The translations under genes were made by a program, and so were the position numbers. Source: Longimicrobiales bacterium (GTDB lineage Bacteria > Gemmatimonadota > Gemmatimonadetes > Longimicrobiales > Gaopeijiaceae). From it: a stretch of DNA of 64,000 bases. The stretch lies in assembly GCA_965219445.1 (NCBI GenBank), contig CBDCNQ010000002.1, positions 160,001 through 224,000 of the forward strand. The letters are read 5' to 3'. A model generated the notes under the pieces. It made no database searches, was not told the DNA's origin, and was given only the letters and a program-made list of their open reading frames with translations. Positions 23,843-37,703 of the stretch are shown in pieces; the stretch's first letter is position 1; the number at the start of each line of letters is the position of its first letter.

Positions 23843-24246
23843 TTGCGCTCGATACGAATGTCCTGGTCCGATATCTGGTGGCCGATGACGCCAAGCAGGC
23901 GGAAGCAGCACGGGTGCTGCTGGCGGGTTTGACAGCTGAGCGGTGCGGCTTTCTGTGCCGCGAGGTGACGGTAGAGCTTGTTTGGGTGCTGGAACGGGCC
24001 TATCGATTCTCCCGTGACCGGATTGCGACCGTGCTCGAGCAACTGGTGGCGACTGAAGAGCTCGAGCTTGAGGCTGTCGATGATATTGCACGCGCAGCCC
24101 GTGGTTACCGTCGAGGCGGAGCTGACTTCTCCGACCTGATGATTGCCGCCGCCGCAAGAAGGTCCGGAGCGCATCCTCTCTACACTTTCGACCGACGAGC
24201 AGCCCAACTTAAGGGAGCAGAACTGGTGAAGGAGCCAAGCTCATGA
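23839..24246 (+). CDS. vapC: PIN-domain toxin
   Basis: MIALDTNVLVRY, E..WVL, DFSD..I, YTFD; overlaps the antitoxin stop. Confidence 0.9.
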   Translation: MIALDTNVLVRYLVADDAKQAEAARVLLAGLTAERCGFLCREVTVELVWVLERAYRFSRDRIATVLEQLVATEELELEAVDDIARAARGYRRGGADFSDLMIAAAARRSGAHPLYTFDRRAAQLKGAELVKEPSS

Positions 24247-24895
24247 GTACAGACTTGGAACACAGCACCGTTGGCACACCTAACCGTGAGGCCGATGATC
24301 GAATGTCAGTTTTATCCACCCTGGCTCATCAGGCTGTGACAGCAGTACCAAAGCTCGTGATTTCAGATCGATTGCGTAAGGCCGCCAAGTACGATCCCTC
24401 AAAGCAATACGAGTTTCGATATCGCGCGAAAGGTCATCGCGACCTTCCCCACGTTGTCAAGTTGTCTGGAGGACGCTCAAGCGGGATGCTCCTGTTCGCG
24501 CTCCTTGAGAACAAGATCCTCGACCCAGACCGAGGAGACGTAATCGTTTTCAACAACACCTCGGCGGAGCACCCGGATACGTACCGCTTCACGCGAGACT
24601 GCAAGGTCGCTTCTAGCCGTTACGGAGTACCGTTTTTCTGGGTTGAATTCCAGACCTATGAGGACGCCCGCAACGGCGAGTGGACCCGCATTCCATCCTA
24701 TCGCCTCGTCAATGACGAGATCAGATCTCCGGACAATCCAGATGGATTTCATTGGCGCGGCGAGGTCTTTGAGGAGTTGCTATCCTGGTCAGGATATATC
24801 CCGAATCAGTTCAGTCGCATCTGCACCAGAAATATGAAACTAGAGGCAACGCGCCTGTTCCTGAAAGACTGGTTGGCATGCAAGGAGTCCATCCC
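24243..24895 (+). pseudogene. PAPS-reductase-like PP-loop protein, 5' part (IS256-interrupted)
   Basis: VVKLSGGRSSG PP-loop, FNNTSAEHPDTY, RICT..MK; ends at TSD TCCATCCC. Confidence 0.8.
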
Positions 24896-24924
24896 GAGGT
24901 TGGGTCAATAGGTGTGTAAATGTT

Positions 24925-26169
24925 TCAGGCGGCGTTTTTCCGCTGTTGGGTTGAGACGGGCTTTCCGTCTTCGAACTTTCTTCCTTCAAATACGTCCTTG
25001 AGGAGGTGAGGAGCGTCGAGCCTTCTGAAGCGCTTCTCCGCCACCAAGAGCAGCTTCCAGATCAGCGCCGTAGCGCTCTCGACCCGCTTGAAGCGCTTCG
25101 CCGCCGTTGTCCTGAGCCGTACTGCGGCAAAGGGGCTCTCGACCACGTTCGTCGTGCGTAGATGCTTCCAGTGGTCCTCGGGGAAGTCGTAGAACGCCAC
25201 CATCCGCTCCCAGTCGTCCTCGAGTACATCCACCGCCTTCGGATACCACGGTCTGTAGCGCCTGGCGAACGCCTCACGGGCCTTCAGCGCCTCGGACCGC
25301 CTCGGTGCGTAGACCACGGTCCTGAGAAGGTCCTTCGCCTCGCTCTGCTCCCGCTGAGGCAGCCGGTCCAGCACGTTCCTCATCTTGTGGTTCCAGCACC
25401 GTTGCTCGCCCGCCTCAGGCCATACCTGCCGTACTGCGCCCCAGATCGCCGCGTTGCCGTCCGCCATCAAAAGCCGGGGCGCCTCGATGCCGCGTGCCTT
25501 CAGATCCCGCAACACCTCGGACCAGGACTCGACCGACTCTCGGTAGCCCGATCTCAGGGCCAACACCTCCTTCGTACCATCTCGCATCGCACCGAGAACC
25601 ACCAGCAGCGCTGCCTTGTCCCGCTCGAGCCCCGCCTTCACGTAGATCCCGTCCGCCCAGACGTAGACGACCTCACGGTCGGCCAGCGAGCGCTTCGACC
25701 ATTCCTCGAATTTCCTTGTCCATCCCGCCCGCAGCCGCCAAATCGAAGACTTCGACAACGGGGCCCCCTCGCCCAGCAGGCCCCGCATCGCCAGCTCGAA
25801 GTCTCCCTCCGCCAGCCCGTGCAGATACAGCTCCGGAAGCAGAGCACCCACCTCCTTCGTCCGTCGTGCGAACAACGGCAACACCCGACTCTCGAACCGC
25901 TCCTCAATGCCTCGAACCCGGGGCCGTCGGAGCATGATCGTGCCCGAGCTCATCGCCAGCCGCCGAGCCTTGCCGTAGCCGTTGCGGTAGCCTGGCGCCG
26001 GGTCTACGACCGTCTTCCGCTCCGACTTCTCCCGGCCGAGCAACTCCGTCACTTCCTCCTCCAGAATCCGCTGGACCATCTCCTGGGCCTTCTCACGAAC
26101 CAGCGCTTCCAAGCACTCCCACGTCGGCGTGCTGGACTCACTCTCGGGTCCCACCATATTCTTCCTCAC
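24925..26169 (-). CDS. IS256 transposase
   Basis: YRNGY, LYLHG, WADGIY, ADG, QRCWNHK, RTTNVVES. Confidence 0.95.
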   Translation of the reverse strand: MRKNMVGPESESSTPTWECLEALVREKAQEMVQRILEEEVTELLGREKSERKTVVDPAPGYRNGYGKARRLAMSSGTIMLRRPRVRGIEERFESRVLPLFARRTKEVGALLPELYLHGLAEGDFELAMRGLLGEGAPLSKSSIWRLRAGWTRKFEEWSKRSLADREVVYVWADGIYVKAGLERDKAALLVVLGAMRDGTKEVLALRSGYRESVESWSEVLRDLKARGIEAPRLLMADGNAAIWGAVRQVWPEAGEQRCWNHKMRNVLDRLPQREQSEAKDLLRTVVYAPRRSEALKAREAFARRYRPWYPKAVDVLEDDWERMVAFYDFPEDHWKHLRTTNVVESPFAAVRLRTTAAKRFKRVESATALIWKLLLVAEKRFRRLDAPHLLKDVFEGRKFEDGKPVSTQQRKNAA

Positions 26170-26439
26170 GAGGCATCGTTCCTTTCCCCCGGGCGCTCAC
26201 CCGGGATTCGCTGGTTAACTTCTTACTACCTAGCGGAAAGGGGTCGCCTCTTTTTTTACACACCCTTCTATGGGGCTGGCGGTCAAGACGCACCTTCCCC
26301 ACGCGCCGTCGGCTCATTTTTTGACCGTCGGCGTCCGCATGGTTTGGATTGCCCGGTCGACGACTCAGGGTGGGGAGGGGTGCGCTCGCAGGGTCCGCAT
26401 CGCAGTCCGGAAGACGTTCACAGCCGTCGCGTTCTCCGC

Positions 26440-26600
26440 TCTGGAGCGGGAACCATCCTTCTATCTGGGACTCTGTGGCCCATCGCTTCGTTCGGCTCTT
26501 CCAGGGGTGCATAGCCTTTGAGTGGGGGCTTGGGCTCTCTGCCCCGGCCCACGGTGTGTATGGATGCTGTCCCCTGTAACCGGTTCGCTTCCGTTTCGTC
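26440..26600 (-). ncRNA. Putative bridge/seek RNA of the IS110 element (boundaries approximate)
   Basis: Stem-flanked internal loop carrying UACACACC and UCAAAGG (match the target) plus AUAGAAGG (matches the donor junction). Confidence 0.75.
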
Positions 26601-26653
26601 GGACCCCATGTTGTGACCGCTTTCGACCCCACGCTCGCCGATCCCAGGCCGGT

Positions 26654-27709
26654 TTACTCCGTCGCTTCCAGTCTCTTGGGGTCGTACGCTTCGCCCGTGC
26701 GCCACACCGCTAGCACGATCGAGGCGAGCTGACGCGCGATCGTCAGCTTCGCCAGATTCGGCTTCGTGCCCCCCTCCAGGAGTCGCTCGTAGTGGCGGTA
26801 CAAGGGTTCGTTTTCGGCCCGACCGATCACCGTCGTCGCTGCGCCCTTGAACACACGCTTCAGCGTGTGGTTGAAGTTCCGATTCAGCCCCCGCGTCTGC
26901 TGTACCGGTTCCCTTACCCACCGCCCACCCGGACCCCGCACCCAGTCCGACGAGCTCCGCATCACGACGCCCAGTCCGCAGTACGCCCAGAACCTGCTCC
27001 GGCTCTGGAACCGGTACGGCGTCACCACCACCGGCAGGAGCTCCGCCGTCCGGATCGGACCCAGACCCGGGCACGTCTTCAGCACATGCCACTCTCGATG
27101 CTTGCGTGCTTCCGCCAGCAACGCCTTCTCGGCCTTCGCCCTCAATGCCACGAGTGCGTCGTGCTCCTCGTACAGCAACCCGGCCGTCGTCCTGCTCGCT
27201 TCCGGCAGCTTGGCCAACCACTCCTCCCGGTCGCGCTTTAAGTAGACCGAGCGCCCCGCGCCGTAGGCCACTCCTCTCGAGCGCAGCACGCTCTTGAGCC
27301 GGTTCTTCACCCGCACCGTGTCGCCGACCAAGAAGTCGTAGCTCTTCGCCCGTTCCCCCAGCCGCCTGAACTGGCCCCGGTTCTTGTAGACCGTCGTCTC
27401 CAGTGATCCGATCCGCAGCTTCTCCGCCAGGGCAAACGCGTCCAGCTTGTCGGTCTTCGGGCCCCGGCTCTTGCCGACCCCCGCCACCGTCAGCTCCTCC
27501 ACGTGCGGCTTCAGCACCTCGTACAGCCACCCCGACAGCGTCCCTTCTTCCAGGCATAAGTGCCGGTTCCTCGGAATCCCTCGCAGCACCTCGATCAGCG
27601 CCCGCGCGTTCGTCTCCACCACCTGCGAGCCCAAGCGCTTGCCGCTGGGGCCTACAATCCCCAGCGTGCAGCTCGACGCGTGTGCGTCGAGTCCGATATA
27701 CCTCTCCAT
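26654..27709 (-). CDS. IS110 DEDD recombinase/transposase
   Basis: YIGLD, LEEG, KTDKLDA, PGLGP, YCGL..RSSS; GAGGAGG RBS. Confidence 0.93.
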   Translation of the reverse strand: MERYIGLDAHASSCTLGIVGPSGKRLGSQVVETNARALIEVLRGIPRNRHLCLEEGTLSGWLYEVLKPHVEELTVAGVGKSRGPKTDKLDAFALAEKLRIGSLETTVYKNRGQFRRLGERAKSYDFLVGDTVRVKNRLKSVLRSRGVAYGAGRSVYLKRDREEWLAKLPEASRTTAGLLYEEHDALVALRAKAEKALLAEARKHREWHVLKTCPGLGPIRTAELLPVVVTPYRFQSRSRFWAYCGLGVVMRSSSDWVRGPGGRWVREPVQQTRGLNRNFNHTLKRVFKGAATTVIGRAENEPLYRHYERLLEGGTKPNLAKLTIARQLASIVLAVWRTGEAYDPKRLEATE

Positions 27710-27884
27710 GGGCATCCTCCTCTTGGGTAGGACGGGTTGGGTTGCTTGCTTGCGCGAATAATGATGAACGCGCACCCGCTCCCGGAGGAGAACGCCTCTT
27801 CGTCTTCGGGCTGCTTCGCTGCTGATCGGTACCGGTAGCGGTCGCCATGCCCCTATGATGCCTTTGATCCTAGCTCTCCATCCC

Positions 27885-28665
27885 CCGGCTAGGCCACTAC
27901 GGGAGTCGTTCTCGGGTCGATATCGCCATGATGTATCAGCGACATCGTCGCAACCGAGGCGGGGTCCCCAAAGAGGTCTTTGCCGAAAAGAGGAAATACG
28001 CACTGACACGTCCTTACGTCCGCTCGGAACAGCGATACCGAGATTTCTCCTCGGTTTGGCGCCCCTTCCATAATGCTGCCCTCGAGGGCAGAGCCTACGG
28101 GGACCAGGCTTGGTTCGGTGACGGAGGCGCCGAGTACCTAGCTTTCGTCGGACTTCGGGCAGACGAGCAACTTCGTGTTAAGCGTGTCGAGGCACGAAAC
28201 GCCGGTCCGGGAGCGTCCGGCTATGAGGGCGAGCATGTATACATGCCCTTAGCCGACATGGCTGTAGCCCGGGACGATGTGAACACGTTCTGGGACCAAC
28301 AAGATTGGGACCTCTCGTTGCCCAAGGCCGGAAGCCTCTCCAACTGCGTCTTCTGCTTTCTTAAGGGTGCCGCCAATCTAAGAGCTGTCCACAACAAAAT
28401 GGAAGAACAGAAGCAACAAGATAATCCCGGATTTGGTTCACTAGTGGGTACACCTTCCGATGTGTCATGGTGGATACGCATGGAACAAACCTATGGCCGA
28501 GACCTAGACGCCGAGGAGAGAGAAATCACAGGGACACCAGAGCACAATTTTCTTGGTTTCTTTGGAGCATCGAGTACCTTTTCCTATGAGTTTCTAGCTC
28601 AGAGTGACGAGTGCGAGATCACGAAATATTCGAGCACACTCCTACCGTGCGACTGTACGGAATGA
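27885..28665 (+). pseudogene. PAPS-reductase-like PP-loop protein, 3' part
   Basis: In frame with the 5' part after IS removal; VGLRADE..R, SNCVFCFLKG, terminal PCDCTE. Confidence 0.8.
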
Positions 28666-28693
28666 CCATCACATACACCCGCTGAGCCGCTAG

Positions 28694-29875
28694 ATGCGAT
28701 TGGTCAGCGACCGGGTAGCCTATCTGGATAACCAGGCGACCACGCCGGTAGACCCCCGAGTCCGCCACGCGATGTTCCCTTTCTTCGATAGTTGTTTTGG
28801 GAATCCGCATTCGAGGGACCATGTGTACGGATGGAACGCCACAGACGCTGTAACTGTGGCACGAGCTCAGGTAGCACAGTTCATCGGTGCAGACGATCAC
28901 GAGATCCTCTTCACGTCGGGAGCTACCGAGTCATGTAACCTAGCGCTACGTGGCATCGCGAGGGCCTCTGACGGTAAACGGAATAAGCTGATCACCGTGG
29001 CGACGGAACATCCTGCCGTTTTGGAAACAGCACTGGACCTGCGACGTCTCGGGTTCGAGGTGGTTGTCCTACCGGTGTCCTCCGAAGGTCTCCTCGATCC
29101 TTCTGACCTCGAGCGGACACTCGACAACCGAACCCTGCTCGTGTCTATCATGGCGGCAAACAACGAGATTGGTGTCCTCCAGGACCTTACTGACATCGCC
29201 CACTTATGCCATGCCAAAGGTGTGCTGTTTCATACCGACGCAACGCAAGCTGCTGGGCGGATTCGTATCGACGTAGGCACATGGGACGTTGACCTCCTTA
29301 GCCTGTCTGCCCACAAGTTCTACGGTCCAAAGGGCGTAGGAGCTCTATTCGTTCGATCCGGTGTATCGCTTGAACCAATGCTGACAGGTGGTGGCCAAGA
29401 GCGTGGGTTACGACCAGGAACAGTGTCACCAGCCCTCACGGTTGGCTTCGGCGAAGCATGCCGTATAGCTGGAGAGGAATGGAGAGACGATACCCGGCGA
29501 ATGTCTGAACTCACGGTACGCCTTAGGCAGGGCCTGCATGCCTTGTGTCCGAACATCCGTATCTTCGGCCATCTGCAACAACGGCTGCCGGGTTCCCTCA
29601 TGGTGGGTTTTCCGGGAATTCCGGCGAGCGAAGTCATTTCTATCGTGTCGGATCGCATAGCGGTGTCTACTGGTTCCGCGTGTGCTTCCGGTACCGCCGA
29701 GGCCTCGAAAGTCCTTCTCGCATTAGGTGTGGCACCGGATATCGCCATGACGGGTGTGAGAGTGAGCTTGGGACGCTTCACGAAGGAATGCGATATCGAG
29801 ACTGCACTCGCTGCCCTGTCTGACATTGCTCCGATTGCCGCCAGGAACCGACCCTACGATGACAAAGTTTCTTGA
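28694..29875 (+). CDS. Cysteine desulfurase (IscS/DndA-like)
   Basis: YLDNQATT, FTSGATES, ANNEIG, HTDATQ, SAHKFYGPKG, STGSACAS. Confidence 0.95.
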   Translation: MRLVSDRVAYLDNQATTPVDPRVRHAMFPFFDSCFGNPHSRDHVYGWNATDAVTVARAQVAQFIGADDHEILFTSGATESCNLALRGIARASDGKRNKLITVATEHPAVLETALDLRRLGFEVVVLPVSSEGLLDPSDLERTLDNRTLLVSIMAANNEIGVLQDLTDIAHLCHAKGVLFHTDATQAAGRIRIDVGTWDVDLLSLSAHKFYGPKGVGALFVRSGVSLEPMLTGGGQERGLRPGTVSPALTVGFGEACRIAGEEWRDDTRRMSELTVRLRQGLHALCPNIRIFGHLQQRLPGSLMVGFPGIPASEVISIVSDRIAVSTGSACASGTAEASKVLLALGVAPDIAMTGVRVSLGRFTKECDIETALAALSDIAPIAARNRPYDDKVS

Positions 29876-30413: not shown

Positions 30414-31148
30414 TTCTCTTTCGCACGATACAGACGCGTCCAAGTATCAACCAGCTGTTCGGGCACATCATGGATCGTCATGATCAGCGGGGTATCGGAA
30501 GCAACTCGTCCCAAGCCAACACGGTCAACACGACGGGCACTACGACAACCACAGCAACCCCAACCGCCGCTGCCGGCGGGGAGTCGCCTTGTGGACGCTC
30601 ATCGGAACCGCGCATGGTCCTAGGCGCCTCGTCTCGGTGAGTAGGTACTCAGGATCGTGGCACGATACCGAACAGCGTTGCGACTCCACAGAGCTCTGTG
30701 GTCATGGCTACCTGAAAGGTGAACGTGGACCCCCGCTTTTTCAAGCTTCGCGATCAGATAGGTCCAAGAAATCTAGGGCCCCCGATTTCTCTGGACGGTG
30801 GATTTGGCAAGGAGCCGGGGTCCCAAGAAAGAGGGGGTTGCAAATGCTTTCAAAGGCTGGGGAGTCCGAAGTGAACGAAGGTCGCACACGACACCGCCAT
30901 CTATCGGGCTTGCAGGAAGGAGCACCGCCGCCTGCTCGAGCGATCCGGCGAGTGCGCCTCGACGGCGAGCTCAAAAGCACCGTCGCGCGCCGGAGCGAGT
31001 CCGCCCGTGCGCGAGACGGCTGGCGGGCTGCGGAGGCCGGGCGGCACCACGCTGCCCGGCAACTGGAGCTACTCATGGACGCGGAGGGCGGCGTTCTCTT
31101 CCCCGATGCAGCAGATCGAGTACATCGACTCCGACGGGCGGACCGGCG

Positions 31149-31290
31149 GTGACGAGCCAATCGGCGTCGATATCGAGCGATTGTTCTGCTGTCTGTGTGG
31201 TCACCGCAACAACGCCGTCACGGCTGCCGCCCTTTGAAAGGGCCTGCTCTAGCGCATCATCGAGCAGACGGCGATCCTCTGGCGCAAAGG
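31149..31290 (-). pseudogene. cas3: Cas3 helicase-C fragment
   Basis: FAPEDRRLLD...VVAVTTQTAEQSLDIDADWLVT. Confidence 0.7.
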
Positions 31291-31539
31291 TGCAAAACGT
31301 CCGTGGTGGGGTGCGACCACGCCTCTGCACGGCGGTTCGAGATGCCCGCCAGTCATTCCCGCCATTTGATGGCGTTTTCTCGCCCTTTAAGCACGGCAGC
31401 ATCAGGCATGGTAGGACGGCAAGAACGGCAGATCATGCAGTCCTAGTTGAACTTAGACGATTTCTTGCCGGGGTTCACGCTCACTGGGATGTGCCTGATG
31501 TGCACTCGCCGATCAGCACCGACGCTCGCCGATCCGCGT

Positions 31540-32430
31540 TCAAAATCGGCCTCCAGGGAGCCGTCTCGAGCGCCATGTCGCGAAGCCGTGGATCATCGTT
31601 CCGGGACTCGAGGATCGGTGGAGGTCGTTCAACTCGACGATCCGCTTGAGGCAGGCCTGCAGGTCGCCATACTCTTTGAGCACCCGGTCATCCTTGGCGC
31701 GGATGGCCCGCTCGATTCGGGCGATCTCGCGGCGGGCCGCACTGTCGGGTTCCGGAGCGGCGGAGGGGCCGGATGCTGTAGATGTGTTGGTCCAGTTCTC
31801 GAGGATCGTCTCCGCCCGGCCCCGCTCGTCCGTTGTCCGGACGACGACCACGACTTCGATCCCGCGGCCGCGATCCCAAAGCGCCTCCCAGAGTTCGCGG
31901 TGCGCGGCACCCCAGGAGCGGAGCGCCGTCGGGGTCTCGTGGCCCGGATCGACGTAGACGAAGACGGCGCGCTCGGCGTCCAGCGCGACCGGGAGCCGGA
32001 GCGGGAAGTAGCGCCGGGCGTTCCCGGCCGCTCCCCGATAGACTCGCCGGGGCAGGAGCGGGCGCTCGATGCCGAGCGCCTCGAAGGCGGCCACCTTCTC
32101 CAGCTCGGTCCGGAGCCAAGGCAGGCGGGAATGATCAAGCACATAGTCGAGCGAGAGCAGGCGCCGCATCAGCACTTCCGTGGAGGTGATCCGGCGGCGG
32201 CGGCGGTTCCCGGCGCCGAGCGCCCGGTAGATCCGGCGCGCGTGGATTCGGCACACTCGACCGATGCCGTCGATGCCGGGCGGATCCTCTTCGACGGCCA
32301 CGCCCTGCGCGACGAGGGCGCGGACGGCGCGGCGCACCTTTTCGTGGTGGCAACCCAGAAAGCTCGTCCACTGAGCCCGAGTGAACACGCCGCCATGGAG
32401 ACAGGCCAGGGCGATCCATTCGGCACGGCG
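31540..32430 (-). CDS. Mobile-element-associated hypothetical protein (5' end uncertain)
   Basis: Long ORF; a close partial paralogue lies at about 60560-61045. Confidence 0.6.
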   Translation of the reverse strand, partial: RRAEWIALACLHGGVFTRAQWTSFLGCHHEKVRRAVRALVAQGVAVEEDPPGIDGIGRVCRIHARRIYRALGAGNRRRRRITSTEVLMRRLLSLDYVLDHSRLPWLRTELEKVAAFEALGIERPLLPRRVYRGAAGNARRYFPLRLPVALDAERAVFVYVDPGHETPTALRSWGAAHRELWEALWDRGRGIEVVVVVRTTDERGRAETILENWTNTSTASGPSAAPEPDSAARREIARIERAIRAKDDRVLKEYGDLQACLKRIVELNDLHRSSSPGTMIHGFATWRSRRLPGGRF

Positions 32431-32520
32431 CCAGCGCTCTTCGCGCGTGAAGTCACTAAAGGGCCACGACGCTCGCCCGACAAGTCACAACTCACTCACA
32501 AAATAGCGCGTAGCTTTCCG

Positions 32521-32554
32521 GATAGCTCTCGATAATTGTAGTTATCGAGAGTAA
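32521..32554. repeat. lox-like recombination site A
   Basis: GATAG CTCTCGATAA TTGTAG TTATCGAGAG TAA. Confidence 0.85.
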
Positions 32555-32601
32555 CCCGCGGCAAGGATTGTGACCAGAGAGGCCCCCGAGTTCTTCGGGG
32601 C

Positions 32602-33588
32602 TCATCTGCGTTTCTGAAGCCGTGCCAGCTGTGCGGCGCCGTTGCGCTTGGCCAGCAGCCGCTCGCCGTAGCGCTGCACCATCTGGGCGTTCTTCCAGCG
32701 CCCGGCCTGCATGATCGCCGGGATCCCGATCCCTTTGGCGATCATGTCCTGAGCCGCGCCCACGCGGGGGCTGTGCCCGGAGAGCCGCCGCACGATCTGC
32801 TCCGGCAGCCCGGCCCGTTCGGCCATCGCCTTGTAGATGCGCGGCACCTGGCTCTCATGCAGTTGGCCGCCCAGCGTGCCGTCCTTGCGCATCGAACGGA
32901 AGAGCGGCCCGCCACTGATCCCGCTCGCGCCCAGCCACTCCGAGAGCAGCCTCACGCTGTCTCGGTGCAGGTAGAGCATCGCGCCGCCGCCCTCCGGATC
33001 GGTCTTCGCGCGGCGCACGAGGAGCGAGGCCGAGCCGCCCCTTTCTATCGTCACATCAACGACTTGCAGCGCGACCAGCTCGGAGCGCCGGAGCATGGCG
33101 TCGTAGGCCACGGCCAGGATCGCGCGGTTCCTGACGTCGATCACCCGGTCGCCCGCGGCCTCCATCAGGCGCCGGCGGAGCGCCCAGGTCAGACCCTGCA
33201 CCTGCCTCTGCCGGCACCCCCTCTGCCGGTGCATCCGCTTCAGCGCCCGCCGCACGGTCACGTGCTCGAGCGGGCTCCGCTCCCCGGCCGCCTTGTGCAC
33301 GGTGGCGACGCTCGAGACGTAGCGCCGCACGGTGGCCGGCGCTCGCTCGCTCGCCATCGCCTCGACGTAGGCCACCACCGTGGCCGCGCGCGCGGGCAGC
33401 GGAGAGAGCCCCCGCTCGGCGCACCACCCCGCGAACCGTTCCAGGTCCGCTCGCACCGCTCGCACGGTATGGCCGCTCAGGGCGCCGCGGGCGTCCTCCA
33501 GGTAGGCGGTCAGGCACTCGCCGGTTTGTGACTTCTGAGTGGCCGGGTCGGGACGGTCGGACACACCTTCTGGGGCCGAAATACGCAT
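32602..33588 (-). CDS. Cre-like tyrosine recombinase
   Basis: Core-binding N-domain without arm domain; MLRRSEL, AKTD, HSPRVG, AGRWK, RY. Confidence 0.9.
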   Translation of the reverse strand: MRISAPEGVSDRPDPATQKSQTGECLTAYLEDARGALSGHTVRAVRADLERFAGWCAERGLSPLPARAATVVAYVEAMASERAPATVRRYVSSVATVHKAAGERSPLEHVTVRRALKRMHRQRGCRQRQVQGLTWALRRRLMEAAGDRVIDVRNRAILAVAYDAMLRRSELVALQVVDVTIERGGSASLLVRRAKTDPEGGGAMLYLHRDSVRLLSEWLGASGISGGPLFRSMRKDGTLGGQLHESQVPRIYKAMAERAGLPEQIVRRLSGHSPRVGAAQDMIAKGIGIPAIMQAGRWKNAQMVQRYGERLLAKRNGAAQLARLQKRR

Positions 33589-33624
33589 AAGTGCCCTCTA
33601 CACAATGACATACAGCAAAAAAGT

Positions 33625-33658
33625 TTACTCTCGATAACTACAATTATCGAGAGCTATC
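33625..33658. repeat. lox-like recombination site B (exact reverse complement of A)
   Basis: TTA CTCTCGATAA CTACAA TTATCGAGAG CTATC. Confidence 0.85.
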
Positions 33659-33764
33659 GAGCACGAGGAGTGGGGAAGGTCCACGTGGAAGTGAGGCAGG
33701 CAGCCGAATCAGGGGGTGGTCCGACATCCCTGCCCGACTGTCATTCATCAAAGTGAGAGACAGA

Positions 33765-34715
33765 ATGAACGGTCGAACAGAGATTATCGGGTGCGGCGTG
33801 CGACGAGGTGCGGTCGCGGCCGGCATACTCGCGGCAACAATTGGGTTGCTGGTGGCCTGCTGGGATGGAGGCGGGGACGCCGTCACCGGGCCGGACCCCG
33901 AAGAGTTGGGATCCATTCCGGCTATTCTGCCCATTGCCGCGCGCGCCGAGCACACCAAGGCCTTCGTCAACAACGCCATCAGCCGGTACGAGACCCAGGG
34001 GCTCGATGCTACCCTTGCCCATTACAACCGTGAGGAAAGCGTTGAAGGTGAGTGGTACCTGTTCATCATCAACGGGGACGACCTGGTGATCGGACACCCA
34101 CACCCCCATCGCCGGGGGCAGGACCTGAAGGGCTGGGTCGGGACCGATGCCAACGGGTATGACTTCGGCCCGGAGATGCTATCAGCCGGCGAGGACGGCA
34201 CGTGGGTTTCCTACGTCTATACGAACCCCAAGAACGGCCGCATCGACTCCCCAGATCCCACGGACGTGGAGCTCAAGAGCGCATGGGCGGTGCGGCACGA
34301 CGGGCTACTCTTCGTCTCCGGCTGGTATGTCGACGCCGACGAGTTCACCCAGTACCTGGTGGCCACCGCGGTCCGCATCTTCCGTTTGGCGGGACTGCAA
34401 GCGACCGTGGAAGCCTTCAATGGCCGAGAGAGCGCCACGGCGGGACTGGCAACGACCATCGAATACTACAACAACGCCCCGCACATCGAGGGGGAATGGG
34501 TCGCGTTCATAGCGGACGAAAGCGGCAATATCGTAGATAGCTACCACCCCGCAATGCTGGGAAGGGACCTGCATGACATCTTGGGCACGGATGTGCTCAC
34601 TTTCACCGAAAGCGGCAACTGGATCACCTCAGAGTCCGTGCGCGTCTGGGTGGTCAGCTGGGATGGGTTCGTGTTCGGCGCGGGCTGGCTCCAAGACCCT
34701 AAAACCGGCAGCTGA
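33765..34715 (+). CDS. Cache-domain lipoprotein
   Basis: Lipobox LVAC; WYLFII..IGHP..G, DANG, WVSY.YTNP, K.AW, FVSGWY; second degenerate Cache repeat. Confidence 0.7.
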   Translation: MNGRTEIIGCGVRRGAVAAGILAATIGLLVACWDGGGDAVTGPDPEELGSIPAILPIAARAEHTKAFVNNAISRYETQGLDATLAHYNREESVEGEWYLFIINGDDLVIGHPHPHRRGQDLKGWVGTDANGYDFGPEMLSAGEDGTWVSYVYTNPKNGRIDSPDPTDVELKSAWAVRHDGLLFVSGWYVDADEFTQYLVATAVRIFRLAGLQATVEAFNGRESATAGLATTIEYYNNAPHIEGEWVAFIADESGNIVDSYHPAMLGRDLHDILGTDVLTFTESGNWITSESVRVWVVSWDGFVFGAGWLQDPKTGS

Positions 34716-34797
34716 GGGAGGCGACCACTATCCCGGCTGCGCCCAATTACTCACGCCCGGACGTCGCGGACCCTCGCACAAGACACAAGGAGCCCTG

Positions 34798-35628
34798 GTG
34801 ACACGCACTGATAGACAACGACCAACCAGCCTGTTCGACACCATCGTCGCTCTGGCCATGGCGGGCGCCGCGCTCGCCCTGCTCTTCTCCCCGCTCCAGG
34901 CGCAAGATGACACTGTTGCCCCGGAGTTCGTGAGCGCGAGGACCGACGGGGGTTATGTGATCGTTACCTTCAGCGAAGATATCACCGTCAGTCCGCCGGT
35001 GGCATACGCCGTAGAATCGTTGAACGTTCCCATATACCGGTTTTTCAAAGCGGTTATGGACGTGTCCGTGGACGGCCATGACGACGTTCTATCGGACAAT
35101 GACTACATCTCCGGCAACGAGCTCTGGCTGCAACTGACATTCGCTGTATCCGGTCACCAAGAAGTGCGCGTGGCATACGACAACATGTTCGCCGTGGCCG
35201 GGGACGGCATTCTGGTTGACGCCGCCGGGAATGCCGTTCCGCTCTTTTCCTACCAGACGGTCCAGAACGACGCTCGAACTTATCCTCGTCCCGACAGAGC
35301 GCCCGTGTTCGATTTGTCCACGGAAGATATCAGAGTAGCGGAAGGGGACACCGCCACATACACCGTCTCCCTCGTCTCGCAGCCGTCAGAGGACGTTACG
35401 GTCAACGTAAGTCCTTACCAGACCGTGCAGTCAACGCCCTCCAGTTTGACATTCACTCCAGAGAACTGGAACACGCCCCAAACAGTGACGGTGTCCACCT
35501 ACGACGATGATGACTCATTCGATGCCTGGGGAATAGTACGGCACTATGACCGCGACGATTACTCCACCTATTGGCGGGACCTTCGCATCCTCGTAGAAGA
35601 CCAGGACGCTCAAGTCGGCGGCCTCTAA
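34798..35628 (+). CDS. Secreted SwmB/Calx-beta-like surface protein
   Basis: Signal peptide; VTFSE, LVDAAGN, EG.TATYTVSL..P, LTFTPENWNTPQTVTV. Confidence 0.6.
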   Translation: MTRTDRQRPTSLFDTIVALAMAGAALALLFSPLQAQDDTVAPEFVSARTDGGYVIVTFSEDITVSPPVAYAVESLNVPIYRFFKAVMDVSVDGHDDVLSDNDYISGNELWLQLTFAVSGHQEVRVAYDNMFAVAGDGILVDAAGNAVPLFSYQTVQNDARTYPRPDRAPVFDLSTEDIRVAEGDTATYTVSLVSQPSEDVTVNVSPYQTVQSTPSSLTFTPENWNTPQTVTVSTYDDDDSFDAWGIVRHYDRDDYSTYWRDLRILVEDQDAQVGGL

Positions 35629-35639
35629 CGGCTATTGCG

Positions 35640-36840
35640 CTGACGTTCGCGCCGGGGGGAGGACGAGAAGACGGTGTCGGTGCCGATCACGGACGACGAC
35701 GTGGAGGACGACGGGGAGACGTTCACGCTGATGCTGAGCAACGCCTCGGGCGCGGGCTTCGCGAACAACGACAACGAGGCGACGGGCACGATCCGGAACA
35801 CCGAGACGACGGCGCGGCCGGACCTGACGGCGTCGTTCGAGGGCATGCCGGCTGAACATCGTGGCGAGGGCGGGTTCCACTTCCGGGTGGCGTTCAGCGA
35901 GGACATCGGGATCAGTTTCCGGGCGTTGCGCGAGGATGCGTTCACGGTGACCGGCGGGCGGGTCACGGGCGGCTCGCGCGTGGACGGCCGGCGCGACCTG
36001 TTCAAGATGACGGTGAGGCCGGACTCGGACGGGGACGTGACGATCACGCTGGCGGCGGGGCGCGAGTGCGCGACGTCCGGTGCGATCTGCACCAAGGGCG
36101 AGAACCGGCGGCAGTTGACCAACAGCCCGTCGGCGACGGTGGCCGGCCCGGTGGGCATCTCCGTGGCGGATGCGCGGGTGGAGGAAGGCGCGGGCGCCAT
36201 GCTCGAGTTCGCGGTCACCTTGAGCCGCGCGGCTGCCGGGCAGGTGACGGTGGACTACCAGACGGTGAACGGTGCGGCGGCGGTGGGGACGGACTACACG
36301 GCGGCGAACGGGACACTGACGTTCCGGGCGGGCGAGTCGTCGAAGACGGTCGAGGTCGCGGTGCTCGACGATTCGCACGACGAGGGCGAGGAGACGATGA
36401 CGCTCCGGCTCTTGCATCCGTCGGAGGGCTGGCTGGCCGACACGGAAGCGACCGGGACGATCGAGAACACCGACCCGCTGCCGCGGGCGCTGTTGGCGCG
36501 GGTCGCGCCCTCGTGGGGCGGTCAGGCGATGAGCGGTGCCGACGCGCTCTGGGGCCGCGATACGATGGAGGGGCTCGGGGCGGCAGGCCCGGGATCGGGC
36601 GACCGCATCGACGCCGAGCTCGGCTACGCGCTGCCGGTCGGGAGTCGGCTGGTGGGGACCCCGAGGTTCGGTGTCACGACTTCCGAGTACGGGCGCGGCT
36701 ACCGGCTGGGCTACAGCCTGGCTGTCGTGCAGGGTGGCGCCATGAGCTTCCAGTTCGGCCTCGACGCCCAGCGCCGCGAGAGTCTGCTTCAGGACAAGCC
36801 GGACCACAGCTTGGTGGGCCGACTCACCGCGCGCTGGTAG
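35640..36840 (+). pseudogene. Calx-beta adhesin/autotransporter-like remnant
   Basis: LTF..GE..KTV.V..DD..E..ETFTL.L repeats; terminal ARW; no N-terminus, shortened barrel. Confidence 0.65.
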
Positions 36841-37212
36841 ACGCGGACAGTTCGAGTAGTGTCCCCGGCGCGCCGCGTGTCCTTGCGAGCGTCGTACTCC
36901 GGGCGATGGCCGTCCCGCACACGGTAGGCCAGCGCGGCTTTGTCGCGCGGCCGGCCGCAGGCCCGGTTCGATCCTGCGGTCGAAACATCTCATGGCTCCC
37001 CTGTGGTGTCAGCTTCTAGTCGCGGCCGCCCGCACTGGCCGCCCTGCCGGCATCGATGTCAATGCACCGCACGGTGCAGCCCTTCGCCGCGATCCGTCGG
37101 CCGGCCCTCGACTCACTTAGCACCACCCTCCGAGGCGGCATCCGGTCGCGCTCGGCCACGCGCCGCAGTGCATGAACGGGTCCTCACATGCCGGATCTCG
37201 ACCCCAACTGCC

Positions 37213-37479
37213 ATGGAGACGCTGACGAAGCACTTCGAATCGCGAGTGGATGCATCCCTCGAGCGCACGGGCCTGAAGCCGTCGACGTTCGACCTGCAGG
37301 CGGTGGGCTATCTCAACCCGGTGCGTCAGCTCCGTCCTGGCCGATCACCGAGGCTGGCGATGGCCTGCCAGGTCCCCGTGTTCATCGAAGCCTGCCGCCG
37401 GGCCCAAGTGGCCCCTGTTCCCTCCCGGGGCAACGCGCCCCGGAATTCTTCACCGAACAGAACGGAGGCAGACCGATGA
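37213..37479 (+). CDS. Small Cro-like DNA-binding protein, possibly degenerate
   Basis: Short ORF coupled to the AlpA gene; GRSPRL motif. Confidence 0.4.
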   Translation: METLTKHFESRVDASLERTGLKPSTFDLQAVGYLNPVRQLRPGRSPRLAMACQVPVFIEACRRAQVAPVPSRGNAPRNSSPNRTEADR

Positions 37480-37703
37480 CCAGAGCAATGGAACAGGGCA
37501 TGGACGCGCCCGCGCGCGTCCTGCGGTTACCTCGAGTGCAGGCCCGCACCGGGCTGGCGCGGAGCACGATCTACGTGCGGGTGGCCGACGGGAGCTTTCC
37601 CCAACCGATCCGGCTAGGCGCGCGCGCCGTCGGCTGGATCGAGTCCGAAGTGGATGCGTGGATCCGAGAACAGATCGCCGCGAGCCGCAGCAGTGCCGAG
37701 TGA
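37476..37703 (+). CDS. alpA: AlpA family regulator/excisionase
   Basis: LRLPRVQARTGLARSTIY..GSFPQPIRLGARAVGWIESEV. Confidence 0.9.
   Translation: MTRAMEQGMDAPARVLRLPRVQARTGLARSTIYVRVADGSFPQPIRLGARAVGWIESEVDAWIREQIAASRSSAE

Follow-up and report, generated by a model that had tools for sequence, protein, structure and literature searches.

A probable invertible on/off switch that carries its own Cre-type recombinase

Why would a bacterial chromosome enclose a recombinase gene between two perfect, inverted copies of a lox-like site? The question is raised by a 1.14-kb segment of the window (the whole stretch of 64,000 nucleotides of Longimicrobiales DNA analysed here). An earlier reading of the letters alone, referred to below as the original prediction, took this segment for a self-inverting switch or, alternatively, for a minimal mobile cassette whose ends are the two sites. 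Our analysis makes it quite likely that the segment is an invertible on/off switch carrying its own Cre-type recombinase, with a putative outward promoter that would face a surface-protein gene when flipped.

A Cre relative between two inverted lox-like sites

The two 34-mers at 32521-32554 and 33625-33658 are 100% reverse complements, as originally described, and they form the longest inverted pair in the interval from 28 to 38 kb. Each has 10-bp arms flanking the asymmetric six bases TTGTAG, again as claimed. The loxP-type 13-8-13 register lies one base off the 34-mers, which places one site at 32522-32555, at the 3' end of the recombinase gene (spacer 32535-32542; position conserved in 95 copies), and the other, inverted to the first, at 33624-33657, at the 5' end (spacer 33637-33644). 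The latter stands 35 bp before the start codon (measured gap 35-36 bp), in keeping with the prediction of less than 40 bp. The two spacers match at 8/8 positions. The nine inner pairs of arm bases are perfectly symmetrical in each site and overall symmetry is 10/13, with three outer-base asymmetries; a published search rule for Cre-type sites allows at most two, and some homologues reach 13/13. When up to 8 mismatches are allowed, the 34-mer is present in the 4.56-Mb genome only at the recombinase gene and at its second copy (the matches on contigs C3 and C5 represent a single locus, since the two contigs overlap by 6.8 kb), and the site pair is therefore not a product of chance.

Between the sites there is, as predicted, a single real gene (32602-33588, minus strand). 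Its 328-aa product matches the Pfam families Phage_integrase and Phage_int_SAM_1, and its best matches in the PDB are all Cre variants (E ~1e-28, versus 4e-5 for XerD). The alignment spans Cre residues 34-332 which, together with the Cre-like E values, agrees with the earlier claim that an arm domain is missing. The residues R167, K195, H272, R275, W298 and Y307 all align to Cre and are invariant in 11 homologues, so the proposed R-K-HxxR-W-Y signature holds, tryptophan included. By alignment, then, the protein is a Cre relative with a core-binding and a catalytic domain and no arm-binding domain. Codon differences in the gene are about 1:1 synonymous to non-synonymous against seven close copies, and 2:9 against the second copy in the same genome, which suggests that selection on the recombinase is moderate.

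Site pairs and orientation across the family

Relatives of the recombinase were found in 14 GTDB loci, in metagenome-assembled genomes of Gemmatimonadota, Acidobacteriota, Latescibacterota and Gammaproteobacteria. Within the order of the window organism they occur in 30/374 genomes, all inside its own family, and they also occur in 17/104 genomes of an Acidobacteriota family and 4/85 of a gammaproteobacterial one; metagenome contigs contributed a further 79 loci, kept from 479 matches. A single genome may hold up to seven copies. Judging from their lineages, the bearers would be sponge associates (PMC11651109, in the part available). The closest plasmid proteins are at most 46% identical, and the filter used detected no lox-like site beside two plasmid relatives of 44-46% identity; viral contigs hold only relatives at 25-31%. 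The analysis that follows concerns 164 copies at 53% identity or above, which reduce to 114 unique ones.

The original prediction proposed that homologues be searched for the same flanking sites. Both sites were found in 95/114 unique copies, and their arrangement is always inverted (95/95, with 0/95 direct). The other 19/114 lack one or both sites by the pattern used, owing to truncations, contig ends, and degenerate or 9-bp-spacer sites. This pattern was itself derived from these sites, so that the conservation of the arms is partly circular, but it left the spacers free. There are 33 different spacers among the 95 paired copies, and in 95/95 the partners match better inverted than direct (8/8 bases in 73 copies, 7 in 19 and 6 in 3). 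Mismatches occur at position 1 (17), position 8 (6) and position 2 (2), which puts 23/25 of them at positions 1 and 8, and the central six bases are identical between partners in 93/95 copies. When clusters are reduced to representatives, the central six are identical in 42/42, as against 2.15 expected from cross-pairing. Even among copies that are 95-97% identical, both spacers change jointly between two versions. Tyrosine recombinases use a six-base overlap, and a matched central six with mismatches at the spacer edges fits such an overlap. Partner spacers are required to match, according to the available part of PMC11260471. This co-variation indicates selection for recombination between the paired sites.

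Two copies from one genome (L206 and L207 of G409) fall outside the 8-bp pattern. The sites of L206 have a 9-bp spacer and are still complementary when inverted; L207 is 99% alike and was also missed. In a published table of predicted sites (PMC10250229), two rows with an arm similar to that of L206 also imply a 9-bp spacer.

Clustering of the flanks placed 8/114 copies in swapped orientation, and the seven flipped rows in the tree need five changes. Several pairs display the rearrangement directly. L161 and L166 are related by a full reciprocal flip (regulator flank 98.6%, surface-gene flank 92-97.5%, cassette 96.6% identical); L007 and L167 are likewise reciprocal (regulator-side flank 96-98%, other flank 88%); and both flanks are swapped in L024 relative to L013 and L123. 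Within one genome, L008 and L166 are 99.4% identical and lie in opposite orientation to the same regulator flank. The site of L008 combines the outer arm of the 3' site of L166 with the inner arm of its 5' site, as predicted by crossover within the L166 spacers. L008 stands at a contig start and its second site is missing; a search for the missing half at the chromosome end was negative, and L008 may be either a second locus or the alternative form. A further truncated flipped copy, L014, lies outside the 114 and was not counted. Both orientations thus occur, whether different genomes are compared or two copies within one. This comparison indicates that the family inverts its segment, and the flipped copies in relatives, together with spacers that co-vary in inverted orientation, support the switch reading of the original prediction.

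Closer to the window the record is uniform: the 13 copies with at least 92% identity, the window copy included, are all unflipped. Public assembled contigs from 4/24 runs cover the locus in short pieces, none of those listed spanning the cassette, and the lack of a strand-changing joint among the matches listed is thus uninformative on flipping. In two public RNA runs just 6-8% of the words were present.

A ratio of 106/114 to 8/114 is a strong orientation bias, and a free-running Cre reaction alone would not give it. A stop-codon test (1/8 flipped versus 8/106 unflipped copies) gave no support to the view that most flipped copies are locked by an inactive enzyme, though it misses an IS inside the L161 gene and the lost sites of L039 and L040. 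The IS in L161 (2546-3980, oriented) sits in the first recombinase codons of that flipped copy and has possibly frozen its orientation. Elsewhere, long-contig assemblies break within ~1.5 kb of a module copy, or overlap across it, in three genomes (G000 at the end of C5 and start of C3, G059 at the start of C1, G104 at the end of C4); mixed orientations or repeats could lie behind these.

The tree, built by a quick method, unites the paired copies in a single branch of 99 rows (SH-aLRT 99), a claim from which 12 long-branch rows, probably wrong-frame translations, were excluded (6 paired, 6 single-site). More distant homologues, at 41-52% identity, have a single upstream site in 30/50 loci and none has a matching partner, five of these loci having fewer than 400 bases downstream. 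These homologues, on metagenome contigs (L047-L100), form a sister group, and the spacer of their lone upstream lox-like site differs in nearly every copy. A second related recombinase gene without detectable sites was also seen ~4 kb from a paired cassette (L252/L249 in G586, L253/L251 in G580, and L038).

The lone sites of these homologues bear on another explanation, in which the sites are operators through which the recombinase represses its own gene and an outward promoter, inversions being rare accidents with no regulatory meaning. The positions of the window sites would suit such a role, one lying just before the start codon and the other overlapping the -10 motif of the putative promoter described below, and so would the single orientation shared by 106/114 copies. 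Binding needs arms and not matched spacers, however, yet the central six bases co-vary almost perfectly, and flips recur in separate branches of the tree. We therefore regard a purely operator function as unlikely.

The putative outward promoter, its neighbours and the window copy

A putative promoter lies at the 3' end of the cassette. A promoter scan of 1.6 kb returned one site (32535-32564, minus strand), which reads outward from this end, the -35 lying inside the cassette and the -10 within the 3'-site spacer; shuffled sequences gave 0.2 +/- 0.4 sites. Across the family the strict scan found such a site in 17/95 copies, mostly close kin, and it was repeated with a looser pattern and cluster weighting. 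The looser pattern occurs at the 3' end in 44/95 copies and at the 5' end in 0/95; weighted by cluster, it is present in 12.9/42 versus 0.7 in shuffles. About 29/42 clusters are without the pattern, and for this reason we speak of a putative promoter. A promoter in the flank that would serve the recombinase in the flipped state alone was sought and occurs in 3/95, which offers no support for that arrangement.

The constant neighbour of the cassette is the 5'-side gene, which reads away from it and encodes a secreted protein of the Calx-beta/fn3/cadherin/LRR type. Domains of the fn3, Calx-beta, cadherin, Ig, SWM or LRR classes (E<=1e-4) were present in 24/30 and 17/23 of the 5'-side proteins scanned, and many of those that lack them are cut by the locus end. 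Exceptions are the flipped copy L217, which faces an oxygenase-family gene, and L009 and L023, which face a hexapeptide-repeat gene. With a promoter-like motif that points outward from the 3' end only, flipping probably turns the 5'-side surface-protein gene on, the common orientation being off and the rare one on. In the window copy, a flip would point the putative promoter first at a secreted or lipoprotein-like ORF (33753-34715, plus strand) with weak similarity to Cache domains (dCache_2, E 0.004, below the cut-off); the same gene is found in the ortholog L170. It is followed by a surface-protein gene with a Calx-beta domain in two pieces, 34573-35628 and 35674-36840 (together 34573-36840, plus strand), which is split in L170 too.

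Copies of the close clade have as their 3' neighbour a hybrid kinase-regulator of 780 aa with GAF, PAS, HisKA, HATPase, receiver and winged-helix Trans_reg_C domains. The region upstream of its gene is found beside 60 copies, where it adjoins the 3' end in 55 and the 5' end in 5. Conserved boxes occur on both sides of the 3' site. Inside the cassette, just upstream of the outward -35, lies a GTCAC-type box that may be bound by the regulator (32568-32575, minus strand); a box of this type is present in the last 45 nt of 45/51 regulator-clade copies (40 at one position) versus 8/44 others. Outside the site, the window has four GTGAC-like boxes spaced 11, 21 and 11 bp (32452-32499, minus strand), a remnant of the upstream region of the regulator gene. 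Across regulator flanks these boxes peak at offsets 22, 33, 54 and 65, with a mean of 3.5 per flank, whereas other clades average 0.36. Tandem boxes at 11-bp spacing are a typical feature of OmpR/PhoB-type regulators. The other clades have no constant 3' neighbour, and the regulator is thus not essential to the design.

The mechanism we propose is as follows. Crossover by the enzyme between the inverted lox-like sites, within their 6-bp cores, would flip the segment, a step indicated by comparative genomics of the family. The putative promoter at the 3' end of the recombinase gene would point outward through the site, away from the secreted or surface-protein gene in the common orientation (off) and into it in the flipped one (on). 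Less firmly, the regulator, with tandem boxes next to the site, may control either the promoter or the inversion. A tentative extension, which we hold to be possible but doubtful, is a signal-gated Cre switch: the one-chain kinase-regulator would bind the boxes that flank the 3' site, and thereby set the outward promoter or the direction of the flip. A type of recombinase that works without cofactors would in this way have become a device for the phase variation of eukaryote-like surface proteins, biased and regulated, and exchanged among host-associated bacteria of four phyla. In the window copy itself the regulator gene is lost, the recombinase is intact and the sites are perfect.

The loss is visible at ~32433, where the hybrid kinase-regulator gene normally begins and where it has been replaced, within its probable -10. 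For this reason the regulator was out of sight of the original prediction. The gene now joined there (31540-32432, minus strand) is 5'-truncated and belongs to an unnamed multi-copy family of ~300-aa proteins with ~40 tblastn matches in the same genome; it has no Pfam, NCBIfam or PADLOC match, and the corresponding Atlas clusters are hypothetical and commonest in Acidobacteriota. The original prediction held that inversion could alter expression of the outward-reading genes on both sides. This stands for the Cache-lipoprotein and surface-protein side, which fits the family pattern. It does not stand for the 'hypothetical protein' on the left: that gene is present, but as a truncated member of a multi-copy family it is neither the partner of the cassette nor a natural target or part of the switch. 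The ortholog L170, in another genome, represents the same locus (97.2% identity over 5196 bp) with the regulator intact. The 3' flank of another copy, L163 (G154:C3), has the same break point in the regulator promoter, but what follows is a later portion of that repeat-family gene; the deletion is therefore either common by descent or recurrent.

This replacement raises the question whether, in a family of switches, the window copy is a decayed relic that no longer flips in vivo. The split surface gene, a neighbourhood full of IS elements and fragments, and the lack of a flip among the closest 13 copies would all fit such decay. On the other hand, the recombinase ORF is intact with all its catalytic residues, the spacers match at 8/8 positions and shift jointly among the copies at 95-97% identity, and the regulator gene is intact at the second copy in the same genome. 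We give decay of this copy an appreciable chance, though one well short of even, and continue to read the segment as a probable invertible switch. Two further features of the surroundings may be recorded. A phosphorothioation-type cluster at 24243-29875 has an SspD-like gene split by two IS (24925-26169 and 26654-28009), followed by an intact DndA/SspA cysteine desulfurase. The intervals 31073-31402 and 37188-37703 hold a Cas3 C-terminal fragment and an AlpA-family regulator, and the surroundings have the look of a decayed island.

The second copy in the genome also helps to judge the alternative raised at the outset, a minimal mobile cassette, bounded by the two sites, that would insert itself ahead of surface genes. 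This copy lies on contig C5 at 1696026-1697161 and is an intact, near-identical module (gene 97% identical) with an intact regulator gene. The two copies are identical over the last ~990 bp, and all 18 differences lie in the first 230 of ~1220 columns, a clustering that makes the exchange of flanks look like homologous recombination inside the cassette and not like cassette movement. On the same ground, a swap of flanks by site-specific exchange between cassettes was rejected for this genome. Multiple copies per genome, the spread across four phyla, and flanks that change right at the 5' site are what a mobile element would leave. Yet in no paired copy are the sites direct repeats, excision of a segment between inverted sites is not open to a Cre-type reaction, and beyond the 3' site the homology extends for another ~2.6 kb and takes in the regulator gene. 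A search of the same genome for a locus that is otherwise identical but holds just one, empty site found none. Insertion as a mobile cassette is thus very unlikely, and the invertible switch remains our preferred reading. The perfect identity of the sites, originally taken as a sign of recent activity, may be so in part, but the ~990 bp shared with the second copy point to recent homologous exchange as well.

Comparison with known systems

Cre-type enzymes come from phages and plasmids and are used as tools; to our knowledge, the promoter switches described so far depend on serine invertases or on Fim-type enzymes. In the Hin/hix system of Salmonella a promoter in the segment drives a gene outside it, and Hin is a serine invertase that requires Fis and an enhancer. 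The layout is the same as that proposed here, with the recombinase gene inside its own invertible segment, but the window enzyme is a tyrosine recombinase with lox-type sites and the two systems are alike in layout only. The available parts of the relevant papers place the Hin gene within the segment inverted by Hin (PMC5903667) and describe the role of Fis for serine invertases (PMC2647292).

By output the proposed switch resembles those in which tyrosine recombinases invert a promoter controlling adhesins, namely FimB/FimE at fimS, MrpI and FotS/T (PMC9820224, PMC2647292); the corresponding promoter is putative in our case. As far as the accessible portions of these sources go, those switches differ in having segments of 252-314 bp, short repeats (9 bp in fimS), a recombinase gene outside the segment, and a dependence on IHF, Lrp or H-NS, and they are not Cre-type. 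RecV of Clostridioides difficile (PMC5903667, in part) is again a tyrosine recombinase, acting on switches beside a cell-wall protein gene and a two-component system. It is one master recombinase for several switches, whereas each switch of the window family has its own enzyme and its own lox-type pair. Recombinases near invertons are also reported in the sections available of a survey of gut invertons (PMC11892184).

With Cre/loxP, Vika/vox, Nigri/nox, Panto/pox, Dre/rox, VCre, SCre and the YR series (PMC10250229, PMC4957104, PMC3553980) the window system shares the protein family, the six catalytic residues and 13-8-13 sites beside the gene, at least as these appear in the portions available. 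It also shares the G-A-T-A motif beside the spacer that is present in the active sites of PMC10250229, in the part to hand, and its arm sequence was not found in the supplementary prediction table of that paper, where two rows have the arm sequence of a sister clade with a spacer of different length. In what is available of the discovery papers for Cre-type enzymes, each enzyme is paired with one nearby site in a phage or plasmid setting (PMC4957104, PMC10250229, PMC3553980). The window family, in contrast, has two inverted sites that enclose the gene, and does so on a chromosome. Our literature search, with most subscription papers outside its reach, found no paper on such a Cre-type self-inverting arrangement.

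The fn3, cadherin, Calx-beta and LRR domain classes are reported as enriched in sponge symbionts in the accessible part of PMC11706023, and the locus offers a direct test of whether uncultured bacteria of this kind phase-vary proteins with these domains. Some 95 naturally occurring enzyme/site pairs, in which 33 spacers and several types of arm are represented, are candidate orthogonal recombinases. A Cre-type enzyme that inverts its own gene would join two fields, that of the Cre-type recombinases and that of the promoter switches.
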